The notes under the pieces: model-generated | What the model was told of the DNA's origin: nothing | Database searches by the model: none | Seen by the model: the letters and a program-made list of their open reading frames with translations, nothing else | In this document: positions 5,701 through 64,000 of the stretch, piece by piece | Numbering within the stretch: position 1 is the first letter of the stretch | Layout: every line of letters starts with the position of its first letter | Translations under genes and position numbers: made by a program | Source of the DNA: a virus | Length of the DNA: 64,000 nucleotides | Virus record (IMG/VR): IMGVR_UViG_3300035187_002895 | Span: 5,480-69,479 of that record | Strand: one strand, 5' to 3'

Positions 5701-6902
5701 ATGTCGGCCAATACCAAGGCCCGAAAGCCCGGTGTTGCTGCCGATCCTGTTGTCGGTCCCGCAAATACGGTGTTGGCCGTTTGGGTTTGTAGCGTAAACC
5801 CTACAATGGGGTTTATGGCCGTTCCCGAATTGACAGCGTTGAATATAGCCCCTGCCGGAACGGTCATGGTAACGCTGTTCACTTGCCCCCCTGATGCGGA
5901 TGCTACGGTGGTGACGGATGTGAGCCGTCCCTTGCTGTCCACGGTGACAATGGGAATTAGTAGGTTGCTTCCGTAGGTTCCCGCTGTCACTCCCGAATTG
6001 GGAAGGTCCGATGAGGTGATGGTTCTGAATGTGGGAACCGTTCCGTTTATCGTACTGCTTGAGGCAAGGAACCTGTTTGCGTTCTGTGTATTGAGGGAAA
6101 CATCCAAAACAGCCGCCCCCGTCTGAGGACTGGTTGTTGTGGTGAATACCGTTGTTGCGTTTGTTGTCAGCGAGACAGAGGCCACACCCGATGGGTTGGC
6201 TATAACATCGTTTATGTTGGCGTTCAGCTTCTGTAAGGCCGTCAGAATGGTGTCGGAAGAAGAAATGGCCGCAGGACTTACAGCCCCGTTCCATCCCGTC
6301 AATAGTTTCCCTATTACGGCTGCATTGCTCAATACAGGGTTGGGATAGGTTCCCGACAATTCACCCCCTGCTGCTATTCCTGATATGGTGGATATATAAG
6401 GGGTGTTGTCGTAACTTATTGTCGTTCCGCTTATCTTGACGAACCCGGTCCCCGATAGGGCGTTCTGCTTGGCGTTCAGGGCCGCTGTTATTCCTGCATT
6501 GGATGTATAGCTGCCCTGTAAGTTGGCCCAACTAATATCCCCAAGGACGGCAGCATTGTTCACTTTCGTCACTTGGGCCTGTGTCAAATGGTAGTATTCC
6601 CCTGCCGTTCCCCCTTGCAGCCCCGAAAGGTCATTGTGTATGCCCTGATAGGATAGGGTGTTGGCGTAGGTGGTTACGGAAGGGAAATAGGGCGGAAGAG
6701 GAACATCCAATAGGTTCCCTATGTTTATCAGGGCCGTAAGGGCATCAAGCCGAACGGATTCCGAAAGGGAGGTGTCATTGGCCGTTGTCTTGAGGCCGCT
6801 CATCATACTGGCCCTTTCCAGTTCCCCTTTGGAAACGGCCTGTGAAATGGCTAACGCTGCTTTGGCGTTGTATGTTGAAAGGTCATCAAGAAAGTTTGCC
6901 AT
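2796..6902 (-). CDS. Tail fibre / receptor-binding protein
   Basis: 1368 aa rich in G/S/T/A, with typical fibre motifs (GGELSGTYPNP, VTVDSKGRLTS, TNFLRADG-like, GAKTF repeats). Confidence 0.85.
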   Translation of the reverse strand: MANFLDDLSTYNAKAALAISQAVSKGELERASMMSGLKTTANDTSLSESVRLDALTALINIGNLLDVPLPPYFPSVTTYANTLSYQGIHNDLSGLQGGTAGEYYHLTQAQVTKVNNAAVLGDISWANLQGSYTSNAGITAALNAKQNALSGTGFVKISGTTISYDNTPYISTISGIAAGGELSGTYPNPVLSNAAVIGKLLTGWNGAVSPAAISSSDTILTALQKLNANINDVIANPSGVASVSLTTNATTVFTTTTSPQTGAAVLDVSLNTQNANRFLASSSTINGTVPTFRTITSSDLPNSGVTAGTYGSNLLIPIVTVDSKGRLTSVTTVASASGGQVNSVTMTVPAGAIFNAVNSGTAINPIVGFTLQTQTANTVFAGPTTGSAATPGFRALVLADIGFNFPITQIDGLQDALDGYLTDSLAVNTIFMGNTASAAVNSVVAGDLTASFAIVSGTNEAQFTIANGAVTYPKIQNVQSQTVLGRYALTNGQVQELYFNASDFAINSSTGEIGLVSPNVPILTSKGDLLTHTGVALARLPIGANATFLMADTAATTGNKWVAMSGDATIAVSGAVTIANAAVTLAKMANLPANTVIGNNTGSSATPIALTQTQLTALINQFSSSLSGVVPASGGGTANFLRADGVWTSPTGSGTVNSGTQYQLAYYATSGTAVSGLTAPTANRALVSDANGLPIASTTTTTQVQYLSGATGTTGTTTTNLVFSTNPVLYSPQFGDNATNGHTHYRKAGGSAPTGINNYATLFFREQGGDKKMSVFFDTDAFKSEFLFSATTSTKIYTFPDQSGTVALIDSTQTLTIPAGGGNSADLVLGVNGGGSVSLLAPATVTGAGIYTLPNAYPTGANQFLTATTGGVMSWVAVSGTGDVVGPGSATDGNFAVFSGTTGKLLANPSVATLSTAGRATFNSGVDVGVSSSVTGTIVFRNSSNAFTTTVQASTSAAANINYYWPTTAPTAGQILSSDASGNLSWTAAGAGNMILASTQTNTGAKTFNSGTLILAGSSSGTTTLNASATASGTVTLPALTGTVALLENAQTFTGAKTFSAQAVFSSSPASATSVSISPTTGSTTNAQLTIGGSTINWMNFNNTSNIAVPSFTTRSAGTKITFYPNISASSIDAAIGTEGSGPILWLSAPNFIRFYPNNGGGVTSPIAAAQFEYSNTVRGLNLTADSTTNNSIPALFFSGSPNAQYMQFGSVSANPAFTVGSVVRSAGTKIVLFANNTTTSLDYGIGVGSAQTWISSGGTINFYPNSTTAALAISSTALTIATGVNLVLSTSGAGTQIGTSTTQLLGFHGATASTQRAAAAQAAVATTAATQTTPWGYSTAAQADGVITLLNEIRTVLVNKGLMKGSA

Positions 6903-26328: not shown

Positions 26329-26820
26329 CTATTTGTTACCTAATTCTTGGTCAAAGATAAGAAGCCCACCCGGACATTCCGAAACAAGGGCCAAACGGGC
26401 CAATAGGTCCCCGTATTCCCCCACAGCCTTCGTCTGTATCTTCACAAACTTGTGAACCCTCACCTGAACGGACGCATCCTTTGTGGCGAAATAGAAATCA
26501 GAATAGAAGTCCTTCAGGTCCTTTTCCAAATCGAAAGCCTCCTGAAGGATTCCCATCAGGTCAATCCCTTCCTTGAAGTCCACTTCGTCTATCTTGGGCA
26601 TATCGGCCTCGTCCATCATGTCGTTGAAGAAGTCCCGTAACTTGTAGTAGTGGGCCTGTTCGTCAGCCGATTCCTTCTCGAAGAACTTTTGCGCTCCGAA
26701 AAGGCCCTGTTTCTGGCAGCAGGAGGCGGCATACTTGTAAAAGTTGGAAGCGTAAAGTTCGTGTCCTACGGCTTCGTTCAGCAGCTTTCTGTCGCTGGCT
26801 TTTAATAGTGATTCTTTCAT
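26329..26820 (-). CDS. Ferritin-like protein
   Basis: ELYASNFY...GLFGAQKFFEKESADEQAH...LEK matches the non-heme ferritin ferroxidase pattern (E, Y, ExxH, E). Start MKESLL coupled to the upstream stop (TGATG). Confidence 0.8.
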   Translation of the reverse strand: MKESLLKASDRKLLNEAVGHELYASNFYKYAASCCQKQGLFGAQKFFEKESADEQAHYYKLRDFFNDMMDEADMPKIDEVDFKEGIDLMGILQEAFDLEKDLKDFYSDFYFATKDASVQVRVHKFVKIQTKAVGEYGDLLARLALVSECPGGLLIFDQELGNK

Positions 26821-29800
26821 CAGATACAATCTTGTTTTATTTTGTCGGACAGGTTGTCCATTATGTCTTCAAAGTTTTGGGTGATGTTCTGCATCCGTTC
26901 AAAGGCCCCGTTTCCGTACTTGTTGTCAAAGGACTTCGTTTTGATTTTTGATGGCTTCTTTATGCCGTCAAATTCTGTGGAGGCGTTCCCTTCTTGTTTG
27001 GAGGTGAAGGAGGGTTGGGTGGTTGGTGCTAAAGATTTTAGTTCTGAAATTTGTTTAGTCTCAAAAGGAATGTACAAATCTATTGGCTTGCCTATTCCAC
27101 CCAATGGGTCTATTACATTTTTTATAATAAGCCCATCCGCTTTTTTATTTGTAAAAGAAAGATTGGTAAATATATCTGGACTCCTCAAGCCTCTTACCGT
27201 TTGAAGTATTTGACTTGTTGTAAGTTTTACTTTTTGAGGAGTCATTTGGTTGGTTTCAACCTCTATATCGTCCCATTTTTTACCCTTTGCATCAATTATT
27301 ATTGGCTCGCTTATTTTAACATTCACGGATTTTAGATAGCCATCTTTTGAGCCATATTTTTTCATATAGCCTTCTGCTGTCCCCTTGTCTGTGGTAAAGA
27401 AATATCCAAGTCCTTCATCCGAGAACTTTTCAAATTTCTTATCTGTGCCGTGATATAAAACTAAGGGCTCGCCTTTTTCATTAACAACTTTATTCCCTCC
27501 CTTAGCTGTAAAGTCTCCCTCCCCCCCCTTCGTTTCGGGGCCTTTGGGGGCGGGTTTCGTTCCCTCCCCTTCGGGTTTCGTTTCGGGGGCGGCTGGAGCG
27601 GGGGGGGTTACCTCTGCTTTTCCAAGGGGCGTTTGGGCTGTTCCTTTTTCGGACTTGCGACCTCCAATGCCCTCTTGAACTTCTCCCTTTGTGCCGGAGT
27701 CAGAAAGGCGTAGATTCTGTCTAACTTGTTCATAGTTCTTTATTTTTGTTTTTAAATTGTCTTCAATAATAACTCCTTTTGTTTGTTCCCCCCTAAAAAT
27801 ATCTGTTGTCCCAACACTATTGTTGTAGTTTTTTAGAAAGTCCTTAAACCCACCTTCAAGAGTTAGTGCTATCATTAACGCTTCTGGACTTGGCGGTTTT
27901 ACTCCTGAAAACCCAAGACTTAATTGGGATGCCATATCCACAGGAGACATTTTTGCTGATTTTGCTTTTGATAGATAATCTATCCCCTCTATAATATCGG
28001 GTATCAAACTATCATTTCCAAGTGCAGAGTTCCTTATAAGCGGGATAATAGATTTTAGAATGATATTTTTTACATTCCCCATTCCGGGATTGTCCAAAGT
28101 TCGTATTGTGTTTTCGTCCAGTGCCGCTCCCAATACCAATGTTTCCAGAAATGATACGCCTTCTTTTGTGGCCGTATTGTCTTCATTGAAATATCTTGGA
28201 AACTCATTTGAACCCAATATTCCCTCCTCTTGCAGAAGGGCTTTTATTTTGGTTATTTTTTTAGGGTCTGACGATACTTCACTTGGTTTTTCGGCCTCCT
28301 CATATATTTGGGCAAGTATGTTCTTAAATCTATCAGAGGCTCTTTTGCTTATTTCAACCGCTCTTTCTATTGGCCCCTTTTCCTTTTTTTCCTGTTTGTT
28401 AAAGAGAGCAAATGTTTCGGTGGTGTACGGAAGGGGTGTTTCCAGTTCAAATACCAACATAGGATTAGTAATGCCATCCAAAGCATTTTCAGGCAACCCA
28501 TACCGCTTTAATTTTCGTTTCAGTCCATCAAGATATTCCTTATCAGTCCCAAGTTTTGAAGCCAACTTTCGGCTCATGGTTCTATTGTTGCCATCCAAAA
28601 CGATACCATCTGTGGTTACCACAGGTGTTTGGTCTATTGCTCTTTCGTCAAGTGTTGTGGCTATTGACTGAACTTGTGCTTGGGCCTGAGTGTCTGTTTT
28701 GTAGTCTCTGTCGTTTGCTGTTTTCCCGTTTGGGTTTGTTGGGAATCCGGGAGTTTGAGAAAATGTTTCTTCATTATGGGAAGCAAGAACATCATTTGAA
28801 GATACAATTTTGTATGTTCCTTTTATTTTAGTTCCATCCCCAAGTGTCCGTGTGTCGGTGTCCCCTTCTGATTTTTTGTTTTTAGAATAGGCTGGGCTTC
28901 CGATTTTTTCTTTTGGTTTGTTAAATACAACAAGTTCTCCTTCTTGTATATCGGATGCTGGGAAATAAATAGAATCGTACCCTTCTTTCCGAAGAGCATC
29001 GGTTGTCATCTTGGATAACTTTGCAATCCCGCTATCAGAAAGGTCATCAACAGATAATTCTCCGTCTGGTATATCAAAGTTTTCAAAATCATTTTGGTCA
29101 AACTCGTTCCTGTTTTCATTCAGGATACCGTTTCGCAAACCAACCAATCCAAAGTCATCGGTAACAACATAGGGATTGCTAACCTTTACCTTTACGGAAA
29201 CGGCTGGTTTTTCTTCTGTTGCATACCTATTTGGTTCTGTGGCGTAATAAGTGCCTTCTGCTTGAGACTGGCCCATTCCAAGTCCTTCCACCCTTGTTAT
29301 ATCAAGGGAATCCAAGTGTTTGACAACTTGTTCTTTCGGGGTTTCGTTTGTTATGGTTCCCGCCCCTCCCGTTTCCCCCACAGGCTCCACCTCCGTAGCG
29401 GGGGCGGCAGGGGGCGTTTGTTCTTTAGATAGTAGGGATTCAATTTCTTTATCAGATAACCCTAATGCAACTAAATCTTTTTTTGCTGAATCCATTTCAG
29501 ATTGAGCATTTTTAATTGCATTGTTTTTCCTTTTTTGATTAATAGCATCTATACTTACATTATTGCCTTCTAATTCACCGCCAACAAAAACTTTTTTACC
29601 CCCTGCTGATTTATAATTTTTTGCTTCCCATTCTTCTTTTACCGCTTTAGCCTTGTTGTACTGGTCAACAAGTTTTAGTTTAGCTTCTTTGTATGTTTTT
29701 GCCCATCTTTTATCAAAAGAAGATTTTTGGTATTCATCTTCTCTTATATCATCTATTACTTTTTGTTTTTGTTCAGGTGTTTCTGCGGCTTGCTCTGCAA

Positions 29801-32222
29801 ATAATTTATCGAAATCAAACCCTTCCGCCAAATTTTCGGTAGGCTTTTGATTTTTTGCAATGTCAATAAGAGTAGATTTTGTAGGCAGTTTTTTTATAAT
29901 TCTACCATCAAAAGTTTTTTGTTCTTCATAGAAGATATTACCATCTTTATCTGTAAGTGTAATGTCTGGTGAACCCGCACCTCTACCAACGTCTGTAATT
30001 GTATATTCAACACCTTCAATAACTACTTTTTTACCGATTGGGTTTTTAAGTTTTTCTTTTATACTTTCTTCTGTATCGTTAACTTTAGCCGCACTCTCTA
30101 CATCACTTAATGGAGGGGTTTCTGATACGGCAGGGGGCGTTACGGGTTTCGTTTCGGTTTCGGCCACAGGTTCCTCAACGGGGGCTTCCTCGGAGGGAAC
30201 GGTTTCGACTACCGCCTCTTCCTCAGCAGGAGCCACAGGACCCTCTTCCGCCACCACTTCCCCCTCCGCAGGAGCGGCCTCTATTGCGGCAATCTGTTCG
30301 TTCAGGTCCGCAAGGGCTTGGTCCGGCATTTCATATTCCACTATGGTTCGGTAGTTCTCGTCCTCAAGGTCCTCAAGGGTGATTTCCCCCGCCTGTATCC
30401 TTCTGATGTCGTCTTCCACTCCCGCCCTCCGCTCAGGGGAAAGGCTCTGTCCCTCTGACATAAAGTAATCTTCCAGTTCCTGTTCCGTAACAGGAGCGTA
30501 CTCCGTTTCAGGGGCCGTTTCAGGGGCCACAGGTGGAACGGGTGGAACGGGAGCCACAGGTGGTGGAACAGGGGCCGTTACAGGAGCCACAGGGGCCGCA
30601 ACGGGAGGAACCGCCCCGCTGGGGGGAGGGGGAGGTGTAGCCCCCGTTGGGGGAACTGCTTTGCCCCTTCTTTTCATTCCTATTGTCGCTATTGCGCCCA
30701 ATAACATACCCACTACCGACCCTGCATTTGCACTTTCAGGAATCCCTTCCGTCCAGTTTACTAAGTTTTTCTCAAGTTCTACTAACTGATTGTTTGTCAA
30801 ATTGCTGAACAACTGCTGAACAGCTTCTTGCCCCCCTTCATCAACCCCTTGGGAAAGGGCTATTACAGCCTTAATGGCAATCGTAGGATTGGTTACCCTT
30901 CCTATCCGTTCCGCCAAATTGGTCAATGGTAGGTTCTCCAATGGGGCCATAGCCAAAGCATTTGCAAGGGCTTGTTTAAAAGCCGTCTTGTCGGTTTCCC
31001 CTTTTGCCAACATATTCTCATATTCACTATTGAATACCTGAGAGAAGGCTACCATTGTAGGCTTGTTGAAAAGTTTTCCCAAAGAGGCTTTCCATATTCC
31101 AGGGTTTTTAGCAATTGATTGACTGGCCCCTCCCGGCCCTGCCGCAATCATAGACAATATTTGCCCAACCCCACTTCCTACATTGGCAGCAAGACCAGTT
31201 CTTTCCTTTTCCCCTATCCAAGTACGGGCAATTTCGCTATCATCAACCCATTTGTCGTATTTGTCGGCAAGTTTATATAACAGGTCATCTTCTACTTTTG
31301 TATTTATGCCCATTAAGTTCATGGCCCCAGCCCCTAATTCAGAAATAGTTTTGGCTATTGCAGAAGGGGTTTTAAAAATCGTTCGGTTAAACCCTGATGC
31401 AAAATCGCCCATTGCATCCATGGCTTTCTGACCAATTCCTTTAGACTCTTCCTTTTTCTTCTTTTCCAGTTCCGCCCCACTACCGCCCATAATAGCAGCC
31501 TGTTGGTCTTCGGGGGATAGGTTCTGAAACGATTCTTCGGCCTCTTTGAAAGGGAATATTAAGCCTTGTGGAGCCGCAGACCTTTGGCTTCTGGCCATAT
31601 CCGCAATTTCCTTATTTGCATATTCCCCAGCCTCCCTTTGCTTTTCTGTGTCATAAACAGATTCCGTTCCAAGTTGGGTTTTGGCCGTAACCAATGGATT
31701 GGCTTGGTCCATTTTCTCCCTTTCAGCAAGCACTCCCTTTGCCGCATTGTAATCAATGAAAACGGGAGACTTAGATGTTTGCTGTAGTTCCGCTTCGTTT
31801 TTGAATTGAACAAATGGCCTAAATTCAGGAGCCTGTTCCTGCGGAACCTCCACCTGTTCCCTCGTCAGGTCCGTCAAGGTCTGTGTGCCGGAAATGGGAA
31901 CCACTCCCAACCCGCCCTTTCGGGCCAACTCACGGGTTTGCTCCAAGGGCGTTAAGGGTTTCACCTCCTTTGCAGGAACCTTCTCAGGAACGGAAGGGGT
32001 CGTGATTTCAGGGGCGTACCGAAATAAAAAGTCATCGTTGTCCTTGGCCCATCCCCTCTTTACGGAAAGTTCTGATACCTTGTTTAGCAACTCAGGGTCG
32101 CCCAATAGCCGTTTCGTAAACCCTTGATAGGAGTATTTGCGTGTGGATTCTTTTGTAACGGGGTCCTTAAGCATTGCCCGATACAAGTTCTTCCTTTCTT
32201 CTCCGTCTATAATTTCAGCCAT
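26820..32222 (-). CDS. Giant polyvalent protein with DdrB-like ParB and ART-like domains
   Basis: 1800 aa; SHN...NDRDY...TPVVTTDGIVLDGNNRTM (ParB/DdrB-like); GEPLVLYHGT...GYFFT (ART-PolyVal-like); second degenerate ART-like block (GTYYAT...SNPYV...GYDSI...ELVVF); Pro/Glu-rich linkers. Confidence 0.7.
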   Translation of the reverse strand: MAEIIDGEERKNLYRAMLKDPVTKESTRKYSYQGFTKRLLGDPELLNKVSELSVKRGWAKDNDDFLFRYAPEITTPSVPEKVPAKEVKPLTPLEQTRELARKGGLGVVPISGTQTLTDLTREQVEVPQEQAPEFRPFVQFKNEAELQQTSKSPVFIDYNAAKGVLAEREKMDQANPLVTAKTQLGTESVYDTEKQREAGEYANKEIADMARSQRSAAPQGLIFPFKEAEESFQNLSPEDQQAAIMGGSGAELEKKKKEESKGIGQKAMDAMGDFASGFNRTIFKTPSAIAKTISELGAGAMNLMGINTKVEDDLLYKLADKYDKWVDDSEIARTWIGEKERTGLAANVGSGVGQILSMIAAGPGGASQSIAKNPGIWKASLGKLFNKPTMVAFSQVFNSEYENMLAKGETDKTAFKQALANALAMAPLENLPLTNLAERIGRVTNPTIAIKAVIALSQGVDEGGQEAVQQLFSNLTNNQLVELEKNLVNWTEGIPESANAGSVVGMLLGAIATIGMKRRGKAVPPTGATPPPPPSGAVPPVAAPVAPVTAPVPPPVAPVPPVPPVAPETAPETEYAPVTEQELEDYFMSEGQSLSPERRAGVEDDIRRIQAGEITLEDLEDENYRTIVEYEMPDQALADLNEQIAAIEAAPAEGEVVAEEGPVAPAEEEAVVETVPSEEAPVEEPVAETETKPVTPPAVSETPPLSDVESAAKVNDTEESIKEKLKNPIGKKVVIEGVEYTITDVGRGAGSPDITLTDKDGNIFYEEQKTFDGRIIKKLPTKSTLIDIAKNQKPTENLAEGFDFDKLFAEQAAETPEQKQKVIDDIREDEYQKSSFDKRWAKTYKEAKLKLVDQYNKAKAVKEEWEAKNYKSAGGKKVFVGGELEGNNVSIDAINQKRKNNAIKNAQSEMDSAKKDLVALGLSDKEIESLLSKEQTPPAAPATEVEPVGETGGAGTITNETPKEQVVKHLDSLDITRVEGLGMGQSQAEGTYYATEPNRYATEEKPAVSVKVKVSNPYVVTDDFGLVGLRNGILNENRNEFDQNDFENFDIPDGELSVDDLSDSGIAKLSKMTTDALRKEGYDSIYFPASDIQEGELVVFNKPKEKIGSPAYSKNKKSEGDTDTRTLGDGTKIKGTYKIVSSNDVLASHNEETFSQTPGFPTNPNGKTANDRDYKTDTQAQAQVQSIATTLDERAIDQTPVVTTDGIVLDGNNRTMSRKLASKLGTDKEYLDGLKRKLKRYGLPENALDGITNPMLVFELETPLPYTTETFALFNKQEKKEKGPIERAVEISKRASDRFKNILAQIYEEAEKPSEVSSDPKKITKIKALLQEEGILGSNEFPRYFNEDNTATKEGVSFLETLVLGAALDENTIRTLDNPGMGNVKNIILKSIIPLIRNSALGNDSLIPDIIEGIDYLSKAKSAKMSPVDMASQLSLGFSGVKPPSPEALMIALTLEGGFKDFLKNYNNSVGTTDIFRGEQTKGVIIEDNLKTKIKNYEQVRQNLRLSDSGTKGEVQEGIGGRKSEKGTAQTPLGKAEVTPPAPAAPETKPEGEGTKPAPKGPETKGGEGDFTAKGGNKVVNEKGEPLVLYHGTDKKFEKFSDEGLGYFFTTDKGTAEGYMKKYGSKDGYLKSVNVKISEPIIIDAKGKKWDDIEVETNQMTPQKVKLTTSQILQTVRGLRSPDIFTNLSFTNKKADGLIIKNVIDPLGGIGKPIDLYIPFETKQISELKSLAPTTQPSFTSKQEGNASTEFDGIKKPSKIKTKSFDNKYGNGAFERMQNITQNFEDIMDNLSDKIKQDCI

Positions 32223-55443: not shown

Positions 55444-55871
55444 GTCGTAAAATAATGCGACAAATGTACTAATCTTTTCTGAAAAGTACTAACGAAAATA
55501 AGACAAACTCCTATTCTGAAATGACGGCATACTCTCACACTATTTAAAAGTACTCTCAGAATAGTACTTTTTTCATTGCGAGTTCCTGTAAATCACTTTG
55601 TTATAAACACCTTCCTATCTATTCTTATATAATGAATTTATCCGTGTCACTTACCATTTCCTCCCCTGTCCCTCCCATTCCCGTCCCCGTCTCTACACAT
55701 CCTGCCTACTCCTCTCCCCTCCCGTTCCCTTCCCATTCCCCATCCCCCCCCCTTCCCTTTCCCGCCCCCTTCCCTCCCCTTTCCTCCCCGTCCCCCCTAA
55801 AAAAAAAGAAACGAACACAGGGCCAACAAGGAACGAACTCAGGACGGAAAGGAACTGAAAAGTTTCGGCAC

Positions 55872-55977
55872 TTAACATATCGGACGGGAGAAAGGAAAAG
55901 GAACTTTCACTGTGAGTTAACATATCCGACGAGTTAACAAATCGGACTGAAAGGGTCCACCACTTAACGAATCGGAC
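55872..55977 (+). repeat. Four 14-bp direct repeats (iteron-like)
   Basis: TTAACATATCGGAC 55872, TTAACATATCCGAC 55917, TTAACAAATCGGAC 55934, TTAACGAATCGGAC 55964. Confidence 0.8.
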
Positions 55978-56069
55978 GGGGCCGCCCCCTGTCCCCCCTC
56001 CTTCCGTCCCTGCCCGAAACCAATCCCCCTTAACCCCGTCCCCCTGACCTGGTGCGGACTGGTGGGCCC

Positions 56070-56400
56070 TTCGGGAACCTGAACCAGACCAAACCGATAC
56101 CGGAAACGGAAACCCTGCCAACCCGAAACAGGATCCATACAGGAAAGGAACCAATCCGAAACCGTTATACGGAATATACAGGACGGAACCGGAAGCCTGT
56201 ATATATATAAGGAAAGGGACCAAGACCAGACCAGACCGAAACCAGGAAAGGATCAGGACCAGACAAGGACCAGGGCAGGGAAAGGAACCAGAACCCGAAC
56301 AGGACCAGGAACAGACCGGACCGAAACGGGAAAGGAACCAGACCTGACCGAACCGAAACAGGGACCGAAACGGGAAAGGCCCGAATGTCAACACGGGACG
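56070..56400 (+). repeat. Low-complexity purine-biased short repeats
   Basis: Dozens of GAACC/AGACC/GGACC/CCGAAAC units; very few T on the plus strand. Confidence 0.75.
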
Positions 56401-56606
56401 GGGAATGGGCCCTCCTTCCGCTTCCTTTCCTTTCCTTGCCTTTCCTTGTTTCGGATTTGTTACGCATACACGCACGCACGAAGGAACATTTAACCTTTCG
56501 GATTTCCTTACATGAAGCGAAACGGGTAAATGTGTGGTTTACAGGGGATTAGGGAACAATTCCTTACATATTGTTTCACATTGTGTCGGGTTTTTTCCGT
56601 TTATAG

Positions 56607-56637
56607 TTTGGATTTGTTTGTCGGGGCCGTACTTTTG
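56607..56637 (+). promoter_or_regulatory. Bacteroidota sigma70-type promoter of the early operon
   Basis: TTTG-N19-TACTTTTG, consensus boxes and spacing. Confidence 0.75.
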
Positions 56638-56666
56638 TCTTGTTCAATTTTTATAACACAAACAAA

Positions 56667-56939
56667 ATGAAAAACGAAACGGCGTTGGTTGTCAAAGAAT
56701 TAGTTATGACAACATACAAAAGTAATTTATCCAAATTTTCAGAGTCCGAAAGCATTGAGTTAACGGAAATTAACAGCGGCATAAGAGAGTTCATCATAGA
56801 CCTTTCAAAAGATGGTAAGGTGTGGAGGGGTGAGGTAAATGGAGTTATGATTACAGATGGAGACTTTTGGGCCCTTCCGAAATTGGCAATGTTAGAGGAG
56901 TGTTGGTTGTATATTGGCAGACAATTACAACTAATATAA
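56667..56939 (+). CDS. Early hypothetical protein
   Basis: Start MKNET after an A-rich leader. Confidence 0.6.
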   Translation: MKNETALVVKELVMTTYKSNLSKFSESESIELTEINSGIREFIIDLSKDGKVWRGEVNGVMITDGDFWALPKLAMLEECWLYIGRQLQLI

Positions 56940-56946
56940 CCCACCA

Positions 56947-56995
56947 GGCCGGAAATATGCACTTTGGGAGCCGTCATAGGTTCCTCCGGCCACAA
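56947..56995 (+). ncRNA. tRNA-like element 1 (degenerate)
   Basis: GGCCGGA/TCCGGCC 7-bp stem with a stacked GGAGCC/GGTTCC hairpin, ends ACAA; T-loop non-canonical. Confidence 0.4.
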
Positions 56996-57032
56996 TGCCA
57001 ATTTTGGCAGATTATCAAAACAAACCAAAAAA

Positions 57033-57482
57033 ATGAAAACTGTAGAAAAACTTTTAAGATTCGCCTACCAAAGGCCCGGACTTAATCCACGGGATTACAT
57101 TTCTGATTACAGAGATATTCAGGGCAGAAGGGCCTATTTCCGTGAAAGTAGGGAAATAACAAACGATTTGCAGGACTTTAAAACCCTCTTTTCTTTTGCT
57201 ACTCAAAGAATTGAGAATCTGGAAGAAAAGTTAATAACCTACCTTTCCAAAAATTCAGGTCGTTTAACACTTGAAAACGGAAACCTGCAATATATAACAG
57301 GTCAATATTTCCCAACGGAGTACAGACCAGCCGCAAGTAGGGTTATTGCTTCGCTTCTTTGGGACGATTACAGGGAGGAAAAGAATCAAGATGGAACGCA
57401 AGTCTATGCGGACGGAATAGCTATCAGGAAGGCAATTTGCCGCAACTTCAATAGAAGGATTTGCAAATATTATTTCAACTAA
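57033..57482 (+). CDS. Early hypothetical protein
   Basis: Start MKTVEK; QRPGL and YITGQYFPTEYRPAA segments. Confidence 0.7.
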   Translation: MKTVEKLLRFAYQRPGLNPRDYISDYRDIQGRRAYFRESREITNDLQDFKTLFSFATQRIENLEEKLITYLSKNSGRLTLENGNLQYITGQYFPTEYRPAASRVIASLLWDDYREEKNQDGTQVYADGIAIRKAICRNFNRRICKYYFN

Positions 57483-57489
57483 AACTCAG

Positions 57490-57535
57490 GGCCGGAAAAG
57501 GAAAGAGGCGGGTTCGAGTCCCCCTCCGGCCCCCA
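57490..57535 (+). ncRNA. tRNA-like element 2 (acceptor stem plus T-arm only)
   Basis: GGCCGGA/TCCGGCC stem, GCGGG-TTCGAGT-CCCCC T-arm (one mismatch), then C and CCA; an 11-nt purine linker replaces the D and anticodon arms. Confidence 0.6.
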
Positions 57536-57575
57536 ACAAAACACGGGAACGGGTGTAGGCCGAACGGGAACGCTT

Positions 57576-57764
57576 ATGTTACAATTTTCAGAAGTTATGC
57601 AGGAAGTGAAAGCCCTTTATGAAGGTTGGCTTTCAGATGAAACATTGAAAGATGTTCAAAGCCCTGAAGAAATGCAAATGGAAATGTTGCAATGTATTCA
57701 GGGAGTAATAGGTTCAGACTTTGTAATTCTCACAAAGGAGCAGCATCAGAAATTAGTTTGGTAA
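57576..57764 (+). CDS. Early hypothetical protein
   Basis: 62-aa ORF in the operon. Confidence 0.5.
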   Translation: MLQFSEVMQEVKALYEGWLSDETLKDVQSPEEMQMEMLQCIQGVIGSDFVILTKEQHQKLVW

Positions 57765-57781
57765 TTAAACAGCAAAGCAAA

Positions 57782-57943
57782 ATGAAAACCTTCAAATTCA
57801 AACTTTACATTCGGACGAAACAAGGGCAGGAATTTGTCGTTGCCTGTTCGGAAATCATGGCGCAAAATGTAGATGCAGCCCTGAAACAGTTCAACAAACA
57901 AGCCTTACCCTTCCATCACTTCGCAACAATAGAAACGCTATGA
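57782..57943 (+). CDS. Early hypothetical protein
   Basis: Start MKTFKF; ATGA coupling to the next gene. Confidence 0.55.
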   Translation: MKTFKFKLYIRTKQGQEFVVACSEIMAQNVDAALKQFNKQALPFHHFATIETL

Positions 57944-58194
57944 AAACAAAGCAAATAGTTGATTCTTGCCTGAATGATATTGAGCTGGACATTATAAGGA
58001 ACAATGCCCGGCTAAATGTAGCGGTTCAGGACCAAACATTTCGGCTTGCCATTGCAAACGCAAAGCAATCAGAGAGTCTTCTATCAATGTGGGGCGAACC
58101 ACAACTAAAGAAATACGGCTACAATGTCGCCAAAATAAGGCAGTCAATTGAAAATATAAAGCAGGTTTGTAAAGAGTTCAATATTCGATATTAA
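57940..58194 (+). CDS. Early hypothetical protein
   Basis: 84-aa ORF. Confidence 0.6.
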   Translation: MKTKQIVDSCLNDIELDIIRNNARLNVAVQDQTFRLAIANAKQSESLLSMWGEPQLKKYGYNVAKIRQSIENIKQVCKEFNIRY

Positions 58195-58203
58195 CCCCCC
58201 CTT

Positions 58204-58268
58204 TCCCATACCCCCGCTGGGGGGGGATGCCTTCGGGCGGTCCGGTTCGATTCCGGATATGGGAGCCA
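58204..58268 (+). ncRNA. tRNA-like element 3 (no anticodon)
   Basis: TCCCATA/TATGGGA stem, TCCGG-TTCGATT-CCGGA T-arm, then G and CCA; the inner arms are a C5/G hairpin and GCC-TTCG-GGC. Confidence 0.7.
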
Positions 58269-58309
58269 ATCTTTGCCGGGAACGGGGCCTAAGCCGAACG
58301 GAAAGCAAA

Positions 58310-58459
58310 ATGAAAATTCAGGAACTTATCAGCAAAAAGGGGTATCAATTAAGAATGAACCTGACCAATGGCAGAATAGGGAGTTATTCAGCCGTAAAAA
58401 ATGGCCGTGTATATGCAACCGAAAAGACACAGACACAACTTTTAAAAAGACTGAAATGA
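58310..58459 (+). CDS. Early hypothetical protein
   Basis: Start MKIQEL; ATGA coupling. Confidence 0.5.
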   Translation: MKIQELISKKGYQLRMNLTNGRIGSYSAVKNGRVYATEKTQTQLLKRLK

Positions 58460-58719
58460 ACACATTTGAAAATTTCCTTTTCATTCACGACTCAAACGGA
58501 GTGCCATATGGAGGCATTCCCATGAGCCGCCCGGAAGCCGCCCTGAAACTGGCCATAATTGAGGCCATACGGGACAACCTGGCCCCCCTTACGATTAGGG
58601 TGGACCTGTACTACCTTATGAACTTTGGAATCGTCAAAGCCTACCAACTTTCTGGCGAGGAACTTTTCTTTTCCGCTTCGATTGAATCCTTTCCTTCACT
58701 CCTGACGGCACAGAAATGA
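58456..58719 (+). CDS. Early hypothetical protein
   Basis: Start MNTFEN; ATGA coupling at both ends. Confidence 0.55.
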   Translation: MNTFENFLFIHDSNGVPYGGIPMSRPEAALKLAIIEAIRDNLAPLTIRVDLYYLMNFGIVKAYQLSGEELFFSASIESFPSLLTAQK

Positions 58720-58982
58720 ACATTACTTTAATCGAATCGGGCTGCCCCTGGACCTTCACCGTCAACGGTCGGGAGGTGGTTGTAACGGGGCTAAACATAC
58801 AGCACCGGCCCTTTCAACTTGAAGTGTATGACATGACCGAAAACGGCCCCAAGTGCCATTACCGACAGGCCCTTATGCCCTATCTGGCAGACCTGGAACT
58901 TGAGGTGGGTTCGTTCCTGTCCATGGACGAAAAAGAGGCCCTCATTGATTTTTTTACAGAGAATTTAGAACACGAAATATGA
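58716..58982 (+). CDS. Early hypothetical protein
   Basis: 88 aa, ATGA coupled. Confidence 0.6.
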   Translation: MNITLIESGCPWTFTVNGREVVVTGLNIQHRPFQLEVYDMTENGPKCHYRQALMPYLADLELEVGSFLSMDEKEALIDFFTENLEHEI

Positions 58983-59227
58983 AAGCACGAATTTTAGTAA
59001 CGGGGAACAACCCCCAAACCATTGCCGCCACCATTAAAGGAGACGGCCCTCACAGGGTGACGAACACGGGAAGCGTTCTCATTCCGTTCAACAAGTTTAA
59101 AGCCGCCCAAAGGGAACTATTGCGGCTCCATGATGATTTAAGCCTTGAGGGGACTTTCCATGTATGGACCCCGAAATGTGACGAACTGATTGCCGAAAGT
59201 TTTCACCTATCCATTCTCAAGCCATGA
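58979..59227 (+). CDS. Early hypothetical protein
   Basis: 82 aa, ATGA coupled. Confidence 0.6.
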   Translation: MKARILVTGNNPQTIAATIKGDGPHRVTNTGSVLIPFNKFKAAQRELLRLHDDLSLEGTFHVWTPKCDELIAESFHLSILKP

Positions 59228-59484
59228 CCCACACGATTAAGTGGAACTGCCCCGAATGGGACGGCCCTGAAACTTTAGACGAGGCCGACACGCTCAAAGA
59301 GGCTCTTAGGCTTTACGCTCTGGCCCGAAAGGGTGTTCTGTTAGGCGAGAAGCAGAACGCCCGTCTGGTGGCCTGTAAACGGCCTGAAACGGTGGTTGTG
59401 TGGATAGAGAGGGAAGGGAAGGCAATTCAGGAGGGGAACTTGCAGAAAGGATTGATTAGATTCTACCAACATGGACAGAAATAA
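59224..59484 (+). CDS. Early hypothetical protein
   Basis: 86 aa, ATGA coupled. Confidence 0.6.
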   Translation: MTHTIKWNCPEWDGPETLDEADTLKEALRLYALARKGVLLGEKQNARLVACKRPETVVVWIEREGKAIQEGNLQKGLIRFYQHGQK

Positions 59485-59683
59485 AATTCCCCTTAACACC
59501 CTCACCACCGTGGCGGGGGCCTGGCAAATCATTTACCCGGCCTATTGTCAGGACTTCCTTTGGAGCTGCGCCACATTCCGTGAGTTCCAGAATTTGGTTT
59601 CGGAAAGGTTTATTCTGGATGATGCCCAGTGGGCCCACATCCATGCACTGTGGGGACAGTTCCACCCCAAACTTACGGCCTGA
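59471..59683 (+). CDS. Early hypothetical protein
   Basis: 70-aa ORF in the operon. Confidence 0.5.
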   Translation: MDRNKIPLNTLTTVAGAWQIIYPAYCQDFLWSCATFREFQNLVSERFILDDAQWAHIHALWGQFHPKLTA

Positions 59684-59692
59684 AATAGCCGT

Positions 59693-59739
59693 TCCCGTTT
59701 TGGAAATTTACAGGGGATCGACACCCCTGACGGGAACAA
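59693..59739 (+). ncRNA. tRNA-like element 4 (acceptor stem plus T-arm only)
   Basis: TCCCGTT/GACGGGA stem, AGGGG-ATCGACA-CCCCT T-arm, ends ACAA; 12-nt linker. Confidence 0.5.
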
Positions 59740-59777
59740 TGTCAGCACGGTGCTGGCAGGATTTAAAACACACACAA

Positions 59778-60026
59778 ATGGAAAAAGAAAAAGAGGTGGG
59801 CCCGATGGAGGCCCAATTCCCGCTTCTGTATATGTACAGAACGGAAGTCATGCTATCCGATTGGGAAATCTTTCTCCTGATTGAAGGGCTTACTACAATT
59901 ATTGAAAAACGGGAGAAGGAATTGAGAGATGGGCTTTTTGGGCCAGATAGGATGGCCCATTTTGACGAAATGAAGGCCCACAGGGAACAACTATTGGCCA
60001 AACTAAAAACCATTAAAGTGCTATGA
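59778..60026 (+). CDS. Early hypothetical protein
   Basis: Start MEKEKE after an A/C-rich leader. Confidence 0.55.
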   Translation: MEKEKEVGPMEAQFPLLYMYRTEVMLSDWEIFLLIEGLTTIIEKREKELRDGLFGPDRMAHFDEMKAHREQLLAKLKTIKVL

Positions 60027-60370
60027 GTATGGAAATTAAAACAGAAGGTTCCCCCGCTGAATATGTCGGGGCCCTTATTCTTGTGGCCAAGGCTGGCCGC
60101 ATTCGGGTGAACTGCCATATCAGTTCCGATTTCGTTCCGCTCCAGTTTTGGCCCGAATTGGTGGCCAAGTTTGGGGGAACGCTCTGGATGAGCCGTATAT
60201 TCAGGAATGTATTCTGTGAACTCCCCGAAGGCTTCACCCTCTCCCATAATTTCAGCAAGGAAATTGAGGCCCAGATACAGACTGAATTGCTCCCCGAATT
60301 GGTGGAACTACAGCCCGAAAGTAAAATTGAAATCAAAGATCAAACATTCGTTGTATGCAGCACACAGTAA
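60023..60370 (+). CDS. Hypothetical protein
   Basis: 115 aa, ATGA coupled. Confidence 0.6.
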   Translation: MSMEIKTEGSPAEYVGALILVAKAGRIRVNCHISSDFVPLQFWPELVAKFGGTLWMSRIFRNVFCELPEGFTLSHNFSKEIEAQIQTELLPELVELQPESKIEIKDQTFVVCSTQ

Positions 60371-62081: not shown

Positions 62082-62582
62082 ATGAATTTGTTTCAAATTA
62101 CACAGGAATTTCTCGAACTGGCCTCCCTCATTGAGGAGGCCGGGGGCGAGGTGAACGATGCCATCCTTGAGGAACTGGCCATCAGTCGGGGCAACTTCGC
62201 CCACAAGGCGGAAGGATACACGAAATTGATTCTCAAATGGGAATCCGAATCGGAGGCCGCATCAGCGGAAATCAAACGGATACAGGCCCTGAAAAAGACG
62301 AAGGACAACGCCATAGCCCGTCTGAGGGACACGCTCCTACAGGCCCTTATGGTGTTCGGGTCTGAGGACAGCAAGGGAATCAAGCGTTACGAAACGGCCC
62401 TGTTGAAGCTTTCCACAAGGCGTTCCGCTGCCGTGGAAATTACGGACGAAACGGCCCTGCCGGAAGAGGCTTTCGTGATTAAACGGGAAGTGTCCAAGAC
62501 GGCCATCAAACGGCTTCTGGAAGACGGAATGGAGATTGATGGGGCCGCTATTAAGGAGAATGTATCTTTGCAGATAAGATGA
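62082..62582 (+). CDS. Siphovirus Gp157-like protein
   Basis: MNLFQIT...AEIKRIQALKK...STRRSAAVEI...SKTAIK...G.EIDGA...SLQIR. Confidence 0.8.
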   Translation: MNLFQITQEFLELASLIEEAGGEVNDAILEELAISRGNFAHKAEGYTKLILKWESESEAASAEIKRIQALKKTKDNAIARLRDTLLQALMVFGSEDSKGIKRYETALLKLSTRRSAAVEITDETALPEEAFVIKREVSKTAIKRLLEDGMEIDGAAIKENVSLQIR

Positions 62583-64000
62583 GATACGGCTCAGTTTGTT
62601 CAGGAATAGAGGCGGCTTCCGTAGCATGGGAGCCGCTTTCCTGGCAAGCCCAATGGTTTGCCGAAATTGAACACTTCCCTTCCGCAGTTCTTGCCCACCG
62701 ATTCCCAACGGTTCCGAATTTGGGGGACATGACTAAAATTCACGAAACAAAACAATTTCAAAATGCAAATATTGATTTGCTTGTTGGAGGCACACCTTGT
62801 TTTGCGTTAGGAACTCCAATTGTTACAAGCAGGGGCATAATTCCTATAGAAGATGTTGTGGTTGGTGATATGGTTCTAACTCACAAATTAAGATGGAAGC
62901 CGGTTCTTGCAATTGGTAGCAAAGAAGCAGAAACCGTAATGCTTGGTGGACATGGGAATGGTGGTATAGAAACCACTCCAGAGCATCCATTTTATAGCAA
63001 GATTAAGAATCAAATTTGGAACAATTCAAAACGGATGTACGAAAGGAATTTGTCTCAAGATGCAGAATGGATTGAAGCCAAAGATATGGTGGGTAGGTTT
63101 TGGGGAATCCCAACAAGTGGAGAATTATTGCCGATTCCTCCAATCACATTAAGCGGGAACGAAACACATCTTCCAATAATGAATCAAAGTTTCTATTGGG
63201 TAGTTGGTGCGTGGCTTGGTGATGGATGGACAAGGATTTCGGAAAGGCGTAGCTATGTCTTGATTTGTGCAGACAAAAACAATCACAAATCCATAGCACA
63301 GCATTTAGATGGATGCAATCTAAAATACTCCATTTCTGAAGAAAGAACCACAATAAAGTATCAAATAGCCTCTTCTGCATTGGCTAAATGGCTTGTTGCA
63401 AATTTCAACAAGGGAGCAAAGAATAAAACCCTTGCTTCCTGGGTGCTGTTTGGGCTAAGTGAAGAAAGTAAGAAATCGCTTTTTGATGGATATTGCTTTG
63501 CTGATGGCTACAAGATTTATAATAACAAACAAGATCAAAATGGTTTTGGAGCAACTACAATAAGCCAATGTCTTGCCACAGGAATAAGACTTTTGGCGGC
63601 ATCACTTGGCTATTCGGTTGGAGAAAATTATTGCAAACCCAAGAGAAGAGTTACCACAATTGAGGGGCGCAGAGTTAATGAACAACCATTCTATCAGATA
63701 AGGTTTCACTCCCATAGCCGTTCTGCTGTTCAAGAAAATGGGATACTTTGGCAAAAAACAAAAACATACAAACAAACCAATGCAATTAGAACTGTTTCCA
63801 ATATCGAAGTTGCCGACGACAACAGTTATGTCGCTGGAGGGATTATCGTCCACAACTGCCAATCCTTCTCCGTCGCCGGACTTCGAAAGGGACTGGATGA
63901 CCCTCGTGGTCAACTCATGTACACCTTTGTTGAACTTGCTGCTCGAAAGAGGCCCAAGTGGGTGGTTTGGGAGAACGTCCCCGGAGTCCTATCCTCTAAC
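62579..64000 (+). CDS. dcm: C5-cytosine DNA methyltransferase with intein (partial, runs off window)
   Basis: Manual translation: MRYGSVCSGIEAA...DLLVGGTP[intein]CQSFSVAG...WENVPG. Absent from the ORF track because there is no stop in the window. Confidence 0.92.
   Translation, partial: MRYGSVCSGIEAASVAWEPLSWQAQWFAEIEHFPSAVLAHRFPTVPNLGDMTKIHETKQFQNANIDLLVGGTPCFALGTPIVTSRGIIPIEDVVVGDMVLTHKLRWKPVLAIGSKEAETVMLGGHGNGGIETTPEHPFYSKIKNQIWNNSKRMYERNLSQDAEWIEAKDMVGRFWGIPTSGELLPIPPITLSGNETHLPIMNQSFYWVVGAWLGDGWTRISERRSYVLICADKNNHKSIAQHLDGCNLKYSISEERTTIKYQIASSALAKWLVANFNKGAKNKTLASWVLFGLSEESKKSLFDGYCFADGYKIYNNKQDQNGFGATTISQCLATGIRLLAASLGYSVGENYCKPKRRVTTIEGRRVNEQPFYQIRFHSHSRSAVQENGILWQKTKTYKQTNAIRTVSNIEVADDNSYVAGGIIVHNCQSFSVAGLRKGLDDPRGQLMYTFVELAARKRPKWVVWENVPGVLSSN
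62798..63856 (+). mobile_element. Intein with LAGLIDADG homing endonuclease (353 aa)
   Basis: Begins CFALGTPIVT, block B TPEHPFY, VGAWLGDG and FDGYCFADG motifs, ends GGIIVHN followed by Cys; in frame. Confidence 0.92.

Follow-up and report, generated by a model that had tools for sequence, protein, structure and literature searches.

The stretch of DNA analysed here, referred to as the window, comprises 64,000 nucleotides (nt) and corresponds to bases 5480–69479 of a 69.5-kb IMG/VR virus record (IMGVR_UViG_3300035187_002895; CheckV completeness 72%). It encodes DnaB, several DNA methylases and a Gp157-like protein, its minus strand carries large genes of virion type, and its source is an uncultured lake phage. 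The plus strand carries an early operon of small genes (Table 1) whose only sizeable intergenic gaps are the four occupied by structured elements, here called el1 to el4. The four are not uniform, as only el2 and el3 have the anatomy of the top half of a tRNA with an encoded CCA.

Table 1. Coordinates of the early operon, its four structured elements and the accompanying motifs (positions in the window; bp, base pairs; ORF, open reading frame)
Feature	Position	Strand	Description	Basis
Early operon	56667–60026	+	small genes, punctuated by el1 to el4	ORF list
Early operon genes, part 1	56667–56939, 57033–57482, 57576–57764, 57782–57943, 57940–58194, 58310–58459	+		
Early operon genes, part 2	58456–58719, 58716–58982, 58979–59227, 59224–59484, 59471–59683, 59778–60026	+		
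Upstream motif copy	56390–56411	+	AACACGGGA(A)CGGGG, in non-coding control region; first half of the motif behind el2 and el3	repeat D17
el1	56947–56995	+	7-bp outer stem, 13-nt 5' linker, stacked inner hairpin, tail ACAA	fold z-score -3.95
Palindrome after el1	56996–57009	unstranded	perfect 14-bp palindrome TGCCAATTTTGGCA; RNA hairpin or protein-binding site	
el2	57489–57535	+	acceptor/T-arm minihelix with CCA	folding, strict descriptor
Motif after el2	57540–57568	+	AACACGGGAACGGG-TGT-TAGGCCGAACGG, between el2 and the next ATG (57576)	repeat D17
el3	58204–58268	+	65-nt compact tRNA mimic: acceptor, two mini-hairpins, canonical T arm, G-CCA	folding, strict descriptor
Motif after el3	58273–58301	+	second copy, CGGGAACGGGG...TAAGCCGAACGG, ahead of ATG 58310	sequence
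el4	59691–59737	+	8-bp outer stem, 12-nt linker, stacked 6-bp hairpin	fold z-score -3.71
Palindrome after el4	59740–59758	unstranded	imperfect palindrome TGTCAGCAC-G-GTGCTGGCA	sequence, folding

Counted from the stop codons at 56939, 57482, 58194 and 59683, the four structures start 7, 7 (6 to the 8-bp stem of el2), 9 and 7 nt downstream, respectively, and all of them lie on the sense strand. The next ATG (57033, 57576, 58310 and 59778) follows 40–41 nt past the 3' end of each element, which is the CCA end for el2 and el3, and three of the four intergenic gaps are 93–94 nt long. Single-sequence folding reproduces each structure, and for the tight sequences these are the folds of minimum free energy. 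This agrees with a preliminary description of the DNA which had placed four such structures behind these stop codons and had seen the D and anticodon arms replaced by 11–13-nt linkers or by mini-hairpins; linkers of 13, 11 and 12 nt are present in el1, el2 and el4, and mini-hairpins in el3.

The outer stem of el1 pairs GGCCGGA (56947–56953) with TCCGGCC (56985–56991) and runs into the tail ACAA (56992–56995), and its 6-bp inner hairpin, GGAGCC-GTCATA-GGTTCC, closes on a 6-nt loop which is not a T-loop. In el2 the stem is 8 bp long (57489–57496 paired with 57525–57532), that is 7 bp plus a G-1:C73 pair, and is followed by CCA (57533–57535); it encloses a purine linker and the T arm GG(C)GGG-TTCGAGT-CCCCC, in which one C is bulged or mismatched. 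The acceptor of el3 pairs TCCCATA (58204–58210) with TATGGGA (58258–58264), the discriminator G and the CCA occupy 58265–58268, the mini-hairpins CCCCC-GCT-GGGGG and GCC-TTCG-GGC, the second with a TTCG tetraloop, take the place of the D and anticodon arms, and the T arm TCCGG-TTCGATT-CCGGA is perfect and canonical. The outer stem of el4 consists of GTTCCCGT (59691–59698) paired with ACGGGAAC (59730–59737), and its inner hairpin is CAGGGG-ATCGACA-CCCCTG.

The coaxial stack of the two helices measures 12 bp in el2 and el3 only. A 12-bp acceptor/T stack followed by N-CCA, as used by RNase P on minihelices, is found in el3 (7+5 bp, GCCA) and in el2 (7(8)+5 bp, CCCA), whereas el1 has a 13-bp stack ending in ACAA and el4 a 14-bp stack ending in AA. 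The motif GGTTCRANYCC within an acceptor-like fold, typical of plant-mitochondrial t-elements, likewise occurs in el2 (GGTTCGAGTCC) and el3 (GGTTCGATTCC), but not in el1 (loop GTCATA) or el4 (loop ATCGACA). The acceptor/T-arm/NCCA anatomy which is read by RNase P, RNase Z and the CCA-adding enzyme, and which had been ascribed to the elements, is thus present in el2 and el3. Two further statements of the preliminary description have to be amended: stem sequences were said to differ between the elements, which is true of the others but not of el1 and el2, whose 7-bp stem is identical, and ACAA had been listed beside NCCA as an ending of the elements, while the ACAA tails run on into A/C-rich leaders reaching the next ATG and look like the start of the leader of the next gene rather than a variant of CCA.

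On the two strands of the window, el2 and el3 are the only matches to a strict descriptor that asks for a 7-bp acceptor, a stacked 5-bp T stem and a TTCRANN loop, and each has N-CCA behind it. Dinucleotide shuffling (300 shuffles) gave a mean of 0.29 matches, with two or more in 4% of the shuffles, and the mean for NCCA-tailed matches was 0.0067; an initial loose descriptor produced 352 overlapping matches and was uninformative. The z-scores of the tight-fold energies are given in Table 1 for el1 and el4 and amount to -1.15 for el2 and -0.77 for el3. Fold energy alone backs el1 and el4, and motif statistics back el2 and el3.

As expected from the preliminary description, no standard tRNA is called: ARAGORN has no tRNA gene in the window or in the remaining 5.6 kb of the contig, and Rfam has no match at gathering score in the window and no tRNA match at E ≤ 10 in 56600–60100. 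A canonical tRNA gene, with cloverleaf and 7-nt anticodon loop, was rejected on the negative ARAGORN and Rfam (RF00005) results, no element having an anticodon loop. Also rejected were tmRNA, bacterial Y RNA (YrlA) and viral tRNA-like structures, for which Rfam has no match beyond a sub-threshold 13-nt tmRNA T-arm fragment in el2 (8.4 bits, gathering score 47), and the C4/CI antisense RNA family (RF01695), for which there is neither an Rfam match nor a convincing target of the linkers in the window (no complementary site for el1 or el4, and for el2 four versus 1.1 expected, all low-complexity). An intrinsic terminator consisting of a GC hairpin and a U-tract was discarded too, as the plus-strand terminator scan has no site at el1 to el4 and the tails behind the elements (ACAAUGCC, CCCAACAA, GCCAAUCU and AAUGUCAG) contain no U-tract. 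A scan for sigma-70-type promoters at the elements found none, using a consensus which may not be that of the host. A candidate fifth element at 56529–56572 has TTTACAGGGGAT in common with el4, but its fold is weak (-9.7 kcal/mol, z -1.0) and it is not claimed here.

Each element is followed by a further feature, and the palindromes behind el1 and el4 as well as the repeated motif behind el2 and el3 are all present as previously noted. The core of the repeated motif, CGGGAACGGG...TA(A/G)GCCGAACGG, lies at 57544–57568 and 58277–58301, and a search of IMG/VR for the motif returned no match. In a strain variant 56650–57029 is replaced (loose ends at 56649 and 57030) by a sequence bearing a CCGGGGACGGGG...CCGAACGG motif ahead of the gene for a protein of 149 amino acids (aa).

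This 149-aa early protein (57033–57482), encoded between el1 and el2, has 350 homologues, and the loci of relatives were compared around them: 6 viral and 80 metagenome loci with homologues of 38–57% identity, a set that does not include the homologue P0002 (81% identical). A relaxed descriptor has 18 matches in 400 kb of these relatives, versus a mean of 6.35 in 20 shuffles. One of the relatives (L037, 3441–3488) carries a canonical T-arm minihelix with the loop TTCGAAC 11 nt past the stop codon of its 149-aa homologue, that is, in the slot of el2, and the outer stem of this minihelix, TTCCCGT/ACGGGAA, is the outer stem of el4. Because of this, el4 is a diverged member of the T-arm minihelix family; its linker resembles that of another element (L171).

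An orthologous T-arm minihelix, the leader class, is found in eight related contigs (L002, L003, L004, L008, L009, L067, L097 and L248), where it is flanked by a conserved block upstream and the first early gene downstream and does not follow a stop codon. Its members were anchored by their flanks and not by their pairing, except for those first met through the descriptor. Standard pairs occupy 91 of the 96 pair cells and 4 of the 12 pairs show changes on both sides, while shuffling of the partners gave a mean of 79 and reached 91 in none of 2000 shuffles. These pair counts were scripted from coordinates; the variable linkers kept MAFFT from aligning the 5' acceptor strands. Only the leader class was used for covariation, because a larger set of 20 sequences, dropped from the analysis, held two real tRNA-Ile genes that had been mis-parsed (L196 and L214) and consisted mostly of rows preselected for pairing. 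A covariance model built from three near-identical leader elements (R1) found only its own subfamily (7 true matches) and el2 at 11 bits (E 1.7). Upstream of the leader elements, scans for sigma-70 promoters gave weak results: L009 has no site, and L003 has a single 9/12 site some 60 nt upstream.

A search of IMG/VR with the pattern GGTTCGANTCC-N10-CTAT returned at least 117 matches, and among the matches listed 23 have a 7-bp acceptor within 40 nt. Eight of these have linkers of tRNA length, three are real tRNA-Ile genes, three are contigs already known and nine rows are new minihelices, representing eight distinct elements in unrelated contigs. None of the eight is called by ARAGORN, all are intergenic and on the gene strand, and the next ATG-started ORF of at least 40 codons follows 23–57 nt downstream in seven of them and 204 nt downstream in the eighth (L154). 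The T-arm minihelix kind therefore extends beyond this phage group. The pattern of the stem common to el1 and el2, searched in the same way, gave at least 120 matches, none of those listed with a stacked T arm, and these are apparently due to chance. An unrelated viral contig (L178, 4475–4538, minus strand; the same in L247) contains a 64-nt tRNA-like element of el3-like design, with a 9-bp 'anticodon' stem and a 3-nt loop, in which ARAGORN makes no call.

We tentatively favour the interpretation that el1 to el4 act in cis on the early polycistronic transcript as signals for the formation of RNA ends, a phage counterpart of the plant-mitochondrial t-elements. If the operon is transcribed through the elements, each intergenic stretch would fold during transcription into a coaxial acceptor-like stem and 3'-stacked hairpin, and the tRNA-maturation enzymes of the host would meet in el2 and el3 a faithful replica of the upper half of a tRNA, with its 12-bp stack, its T arm of the form GGTTCGAnTCC and its N-CCA. 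RNase P would cut at the 5' edge, 7–9 nt past the upstream stop codon, and the 3' edge would be handled either by RNase Z or by exonucleases and the CCA-adding enzyme. The message would be split in this way and, because the distance to the next ATG is constant, a cut at the 3' edge would provide each downstream cistron with an identical leader of 40–41 nt; what is left over would be tRNA-like RNAs of 45–65 nt or tRNA-like 3' caps. According to this scheme el4 would be a diverged member of the same kind and el1 a plainer hairpin of the same modular system. The fixed geometry between stop codon, element and ATG, and the non-terminator character of the elements, which have neither a U-tract nor a plus-strand terminator call, are in favour of this interpretation. 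So are the anatomy of el2 and el3 with its shuffle statistics, the lack of any tRNA gene call, the minihelices of related and unrelated contigs, and the precedent of the t-elements and of the phage RNAs and polycistronic mRNAs processed by RNase P.

Several findings weigh against end formation, and some of them speak at the same time for the main rival explanation, which we consider possible if unlikely, namely that the elements are hairpins with a structural role in a modular 'stem-loop plus regulatory motif' system similar to the PeSLs, which are composite terminator/promoter motifs at indel borders (PMC4122927). The stems would then be attenuators, weak terminators or 3'-end stabilisers, the trailing motif or palindrome a promoter or operator, and the elements recombination joints for swaps of small early genes, the T-loop being merely a compact and stable way of closing a hairpin. 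Within the window itself, el1 and el4 lack the T-loop consensus, the CCA and the 12-bp stack, and the fold energies of the GC-rich el2 and el3 are unexceptional. In the relatives the el2 slot was surveyed over the 80 nt following the stop codon of the 149-aa homologue, where 86 sources less 14 duplicates and 3 that were too short left 69 distinct sequences. T-arm minihelices occur in 2 of the 69 (the window and L037) and plain hairpins with at least five G-C pairs in 23, of which 9 are followed by a T-run and are terminator-like; the other 44 have a weak stem or none. The tRNA shape is consequently not required at the el2 slot. As to the covariation sought in homologues, the T-arm minihelices that recur in related and unrelated phage contigs show compensatory changes.

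Single relatives moreover repeat one plain stem after several early genes (GGGACGGG/CCCGTCCC four times in L024, CCGGCCGGGGAG/CTCCCCGGCC three to four times in L050 and L072, and another twice in L063), and the 5' and 3' parts of el1 align to the plain GGCCGG...CCGGCC-ACAAT hairpins of L072 and L050. This alignment places el1 in a conserved family of GGCCGG...CCGGCC-ACAA hairpins, and the earlier notion of a single tRNA-like family comprising all four elements has to be given up. Stem families are in fact common to different slots and phages, el1 and el2 having the stem of the L050/L072 family and el4 that of L037, as expected of modular hairpins, and the conserved motif behind el2 and el3 recurs at 56390 and in the strain variant. 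No real tRNA is called by ARAGORN in the 86 loci of the relatives (337 kb), Rfam finds no ribozyme or tRNA in the slots of 40 loci, and no recognisable tRNA-processing enzyme is found among 38 phage proteins scanned against Pfam. In the leader slot of two further relatives (L104 and L137) the same architecture has a AACTTTGC loop in place of the T-loop. These two elements (L104, 6299–6360; L137, minus strand, about 5680–5742) show the conserved AACTTTGC loop in the 3' hairpin, covarying stems and a long insertion in hairpin 1.

None of the sequencing runs listed as containing this stretch is recorded as RNA. Contigs of four lake-water DNA runs, placed on 56500–60100, point in the same direction. 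Strain contigs leave the window at 56944, 57030, 57482 (in two runs), 57505, 57541, 58197, 58202, 58261 and 58316, and one strain form skips 56654–57762, that is, genes 1–3 of the operon. Breakpoints also fall at gene borders free of elements (56653, 57763/57787, 58454 and 59813), so that the elements need not be the cause of the breaks. From both kinds of breakpoint it follows that the early region is a mosaic whose joints include the elements. Another lake-water strain has 214 other letters in place of 59814–60022.

Judged by the features of PeSLs, stem-loops with strain breakpoints at them are seen and a motif follows el2 and el3, but a sigma-70-type promoter and a U-tract were not found at the elements. 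A canonical T arm with N-CCA occurring twice within 0.8 kb is moreover very unlikely without selection for tRNA likeness, and el3 is unrelated to the repeated stem families. The PeSL-like system accounts for the plain hairpins of the relatives and for the mosaic joints, but not for the T arm with CCA that occurs twice, nor for el3.

Another explanation, which we regard as improbable, is that a released small RNA acts in trans, with the CCA-ended el2 and el3 serving early in infection as decoys or sponges of host factors or defence toxins which bind or modify the acceptor end of tRNA, or as substrates of an aminoacyl-tRNA synthetase. A microhelix of tRNA-His can be aminoacylated and toxins acting on the acceptor end exist (MenT), and the G-1:C73 pair of el2 is a tRNA-His feature, although a G at position -1 is expected by chance in one case out of four. 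The encoded CCA is confined to the two most tRNA-like elements, the arms of el3 have been swapped for extra-stable mini-hairpins and have not decayed, the elements lie early in the operon, and the leader-class elements of the relatives open the early transcript, a position in which they would be produced earliest and in large amounts. Most members of the family are, however, without a CCA, and the linkers have no convincing targets in the window. It is quite improbable that both roles are combined in an unannotated RNA class of anticodon-less tRNA top halves between the early genes of several unrelated phage groups, in which the hijacking of the host RNase P, RNase Z and CCA-adding enzyme would yield cistrons with uniform leaders and, jointly with this, the CCA-ended minihelices would be charged (el2 being tRNA-His-like) or would soak up acceptor-end toxins or tRNA-modifying enzymes. 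Finally, a relic origin, from decayed phage tRNA genes or from integration-site leftovers copying the 3' half of a host tRNA, would suit the cloverleaf-like arm order retained by el3 and the tRNA genes that phages often carry among their early genes, but it is very improbable because among 185,579 species, represented by one genome each, no tRNA gene matches the 3' half of el3 (22-mer) or that of el2 (21-mer) (no match for el3, and two for el2, neither at a locus with an ARAGORN tRNA), tight hairpins without erosion stand in place of the arms, and in relatives the two acceptor strands persist and covary; the fixed geometry also argues against it, and no integrase was seen in general scans of the window proteins.

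A full-text search of the literature revealed no account of tRNA mimics without an anticodon lying between genes of phages, and the nearest work is a survey of viral structured-RNA candidates which, in the passages considered, has tRNA-like candidates only where these overlap ARAGORN calls (PMC10690425). Annotation based on ARAGORN and Rfam would miss elements of this type, as neither program called any of those described here. Should the cuts be real, bacteriophages would punctuate their transcripts with stripped-down tRNA mimics as mitochondria do with tRNAs, which would explain how long early transcripts are divided and stabilised in phages poor in Shine-Dalgarno sequences. A natural example would then be added to the acceptor/T-arm minihelices, which have been met with mostly as engineered substrates and in theories on the origin of tRNA, and a compact, portable RNA-processing signal for synthetic operons would be at hand. 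Since they are sited at joints where strains swap early genes, the elements may also shape the mosaicism of phage genomes.

As for the genes around the elements, none of the 10 early-operon ORFs submitted (56667–59481, the ORFs at 59471–59683 and 59778–60026 not being among them) belongs to a Pfam or PHROG family. AlphaFold2 models the 149-aa protein confidently (pLDDT 90.9), neither Foldseek PDB (best E 1.3) nor VIA wide (best Z 4.7) returned a fold match, and the label 'NusB' on one of its homologues, a name given by a single source, is borne out by no analysis made here. The 84-aa and 70-aa proteins encoded upstream of el3 and el4 have no homologues in IMG/VR. No cultured close relative was found, as blastn of 56600–60100 and tblastn of the 149-aa protein against phage records both gave no matches; the matches of DnaB are all at most 33% identical and no host can be assigned from them.

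The operon is preceded by about 0.8 kb of non-coding, low-complexity and strongly strand-skewed DNA (55630–56460), which separates divergent gene blocks and is probably an origin or control region. It contains a C/T-only tract (55650–55800), repeated GTTAACAnATCGGAC units (55869–55947) and about 330 bp of GGACC/AGACC/GAAAC units (56070–56373). The octamer GGGAACGG occurs 18 times in the whole window versus 2.6 expected, and the related motifs ACGGGGA/CGGGAAC recur in the control regions of relatives. After the gene preceding the early control region, relatives have a Y-shaped element consisting of a closing stem, hairpin 1 and, stacked on the 3' strand, hairpin 2 (L002, 1985–2045; L003, 940–1010; L004, 1055–1110; L008, 330–385; L009, 1075–1140; L067, 1082–1140). 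The loop of hairpin 1 is TGAAAATAG in three of them and the tail is (A)CAAAG, and the stems differ wholly between phages with the pairing kept. Elsewhere in the window a Hint/intein domain interrupts a C-5 cytosine DNA methylase gene (62579–64000), and an 1800-aa polyvalent protein with ART-PolyVal and ddrB-ParB domains is encoded at 26820–32222.

The elements can be compared with several known systems. The minimal substrate of RNase P is reportedly an acceptor stem on a T stem-loop with a 3' RCCA (McClain, Guerrier-Takada and Altman, 1987), an anatomy that is matched by el2 and el3; it was engineered in that case and is natural here, where a linker of 11–30 nt replaces the D and anticodon arms. 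In mitochondrial tRNA punctuation and in the mascRNA of MALAT1, a tRNA or a mimic within a longer transcript sets the flanking RNA ends, but these are eukaryotic systems with full cloverleaf-like tRNAs or mimics. The P4 CI RNA is one of the phage substrates of RNase P. Other non-tRNA substrates of this enzyme include the C4 antisense RNA of P1/P7, the M3 RNA of phi80 and polycistronic mRNAs (PMC11143913). Like the RNAs proposed here, these phage RNAs are small tRNA-like RNAs excised from phage early transcripts by a host tRNA enzyme, RNase P being aided by a 3' CCA, whereas el1 to el4 show no Rfam C4 (RF01695) match or antisense target and are present in several copies per operon. The PeSL cassettes of T4-type phages share with our elements the repeated stem-loop and conserved motif between small early genes and the swapping of genes between strains; they consist of a terminator-like stem-loop and a sigma-70 early promoter (PMC4122927), whereas neither the promoter nor a U-tract was found at el1 to el4. 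PeSLs, for their part, are without a T arm or CCA.

The t-elements of plant mitochondria were found by means of the GGTTCRANYCC motif, are sited 5' or 3' of mRNAs and have ends that fall on mapped termini ascribed to RNase P and RNase Z (PMC1920247). The ends of the mRNAs and of the released elements were mapped experimentally there, whereas the phage elements are known from their sequence alone; the phage elements differ in addition by their setting in an early operon, the CCA encoded in two of them and the fixed frame of stop+7 and 40 nt to the ATG. The t-elements combine the GGTTCRANYCC T arm with an acceptor-like stem without forming a working cloverleaf, lie beside coding regions, occur alongside plain 'acceptor-stem-like stem-loops' and are proposed to guide RNase P and RNase Z (PMC1920247), all of which resembles the situation in the phage, and the leader and post-stop positions of the phage elements mirror the two positions of the t-elements.

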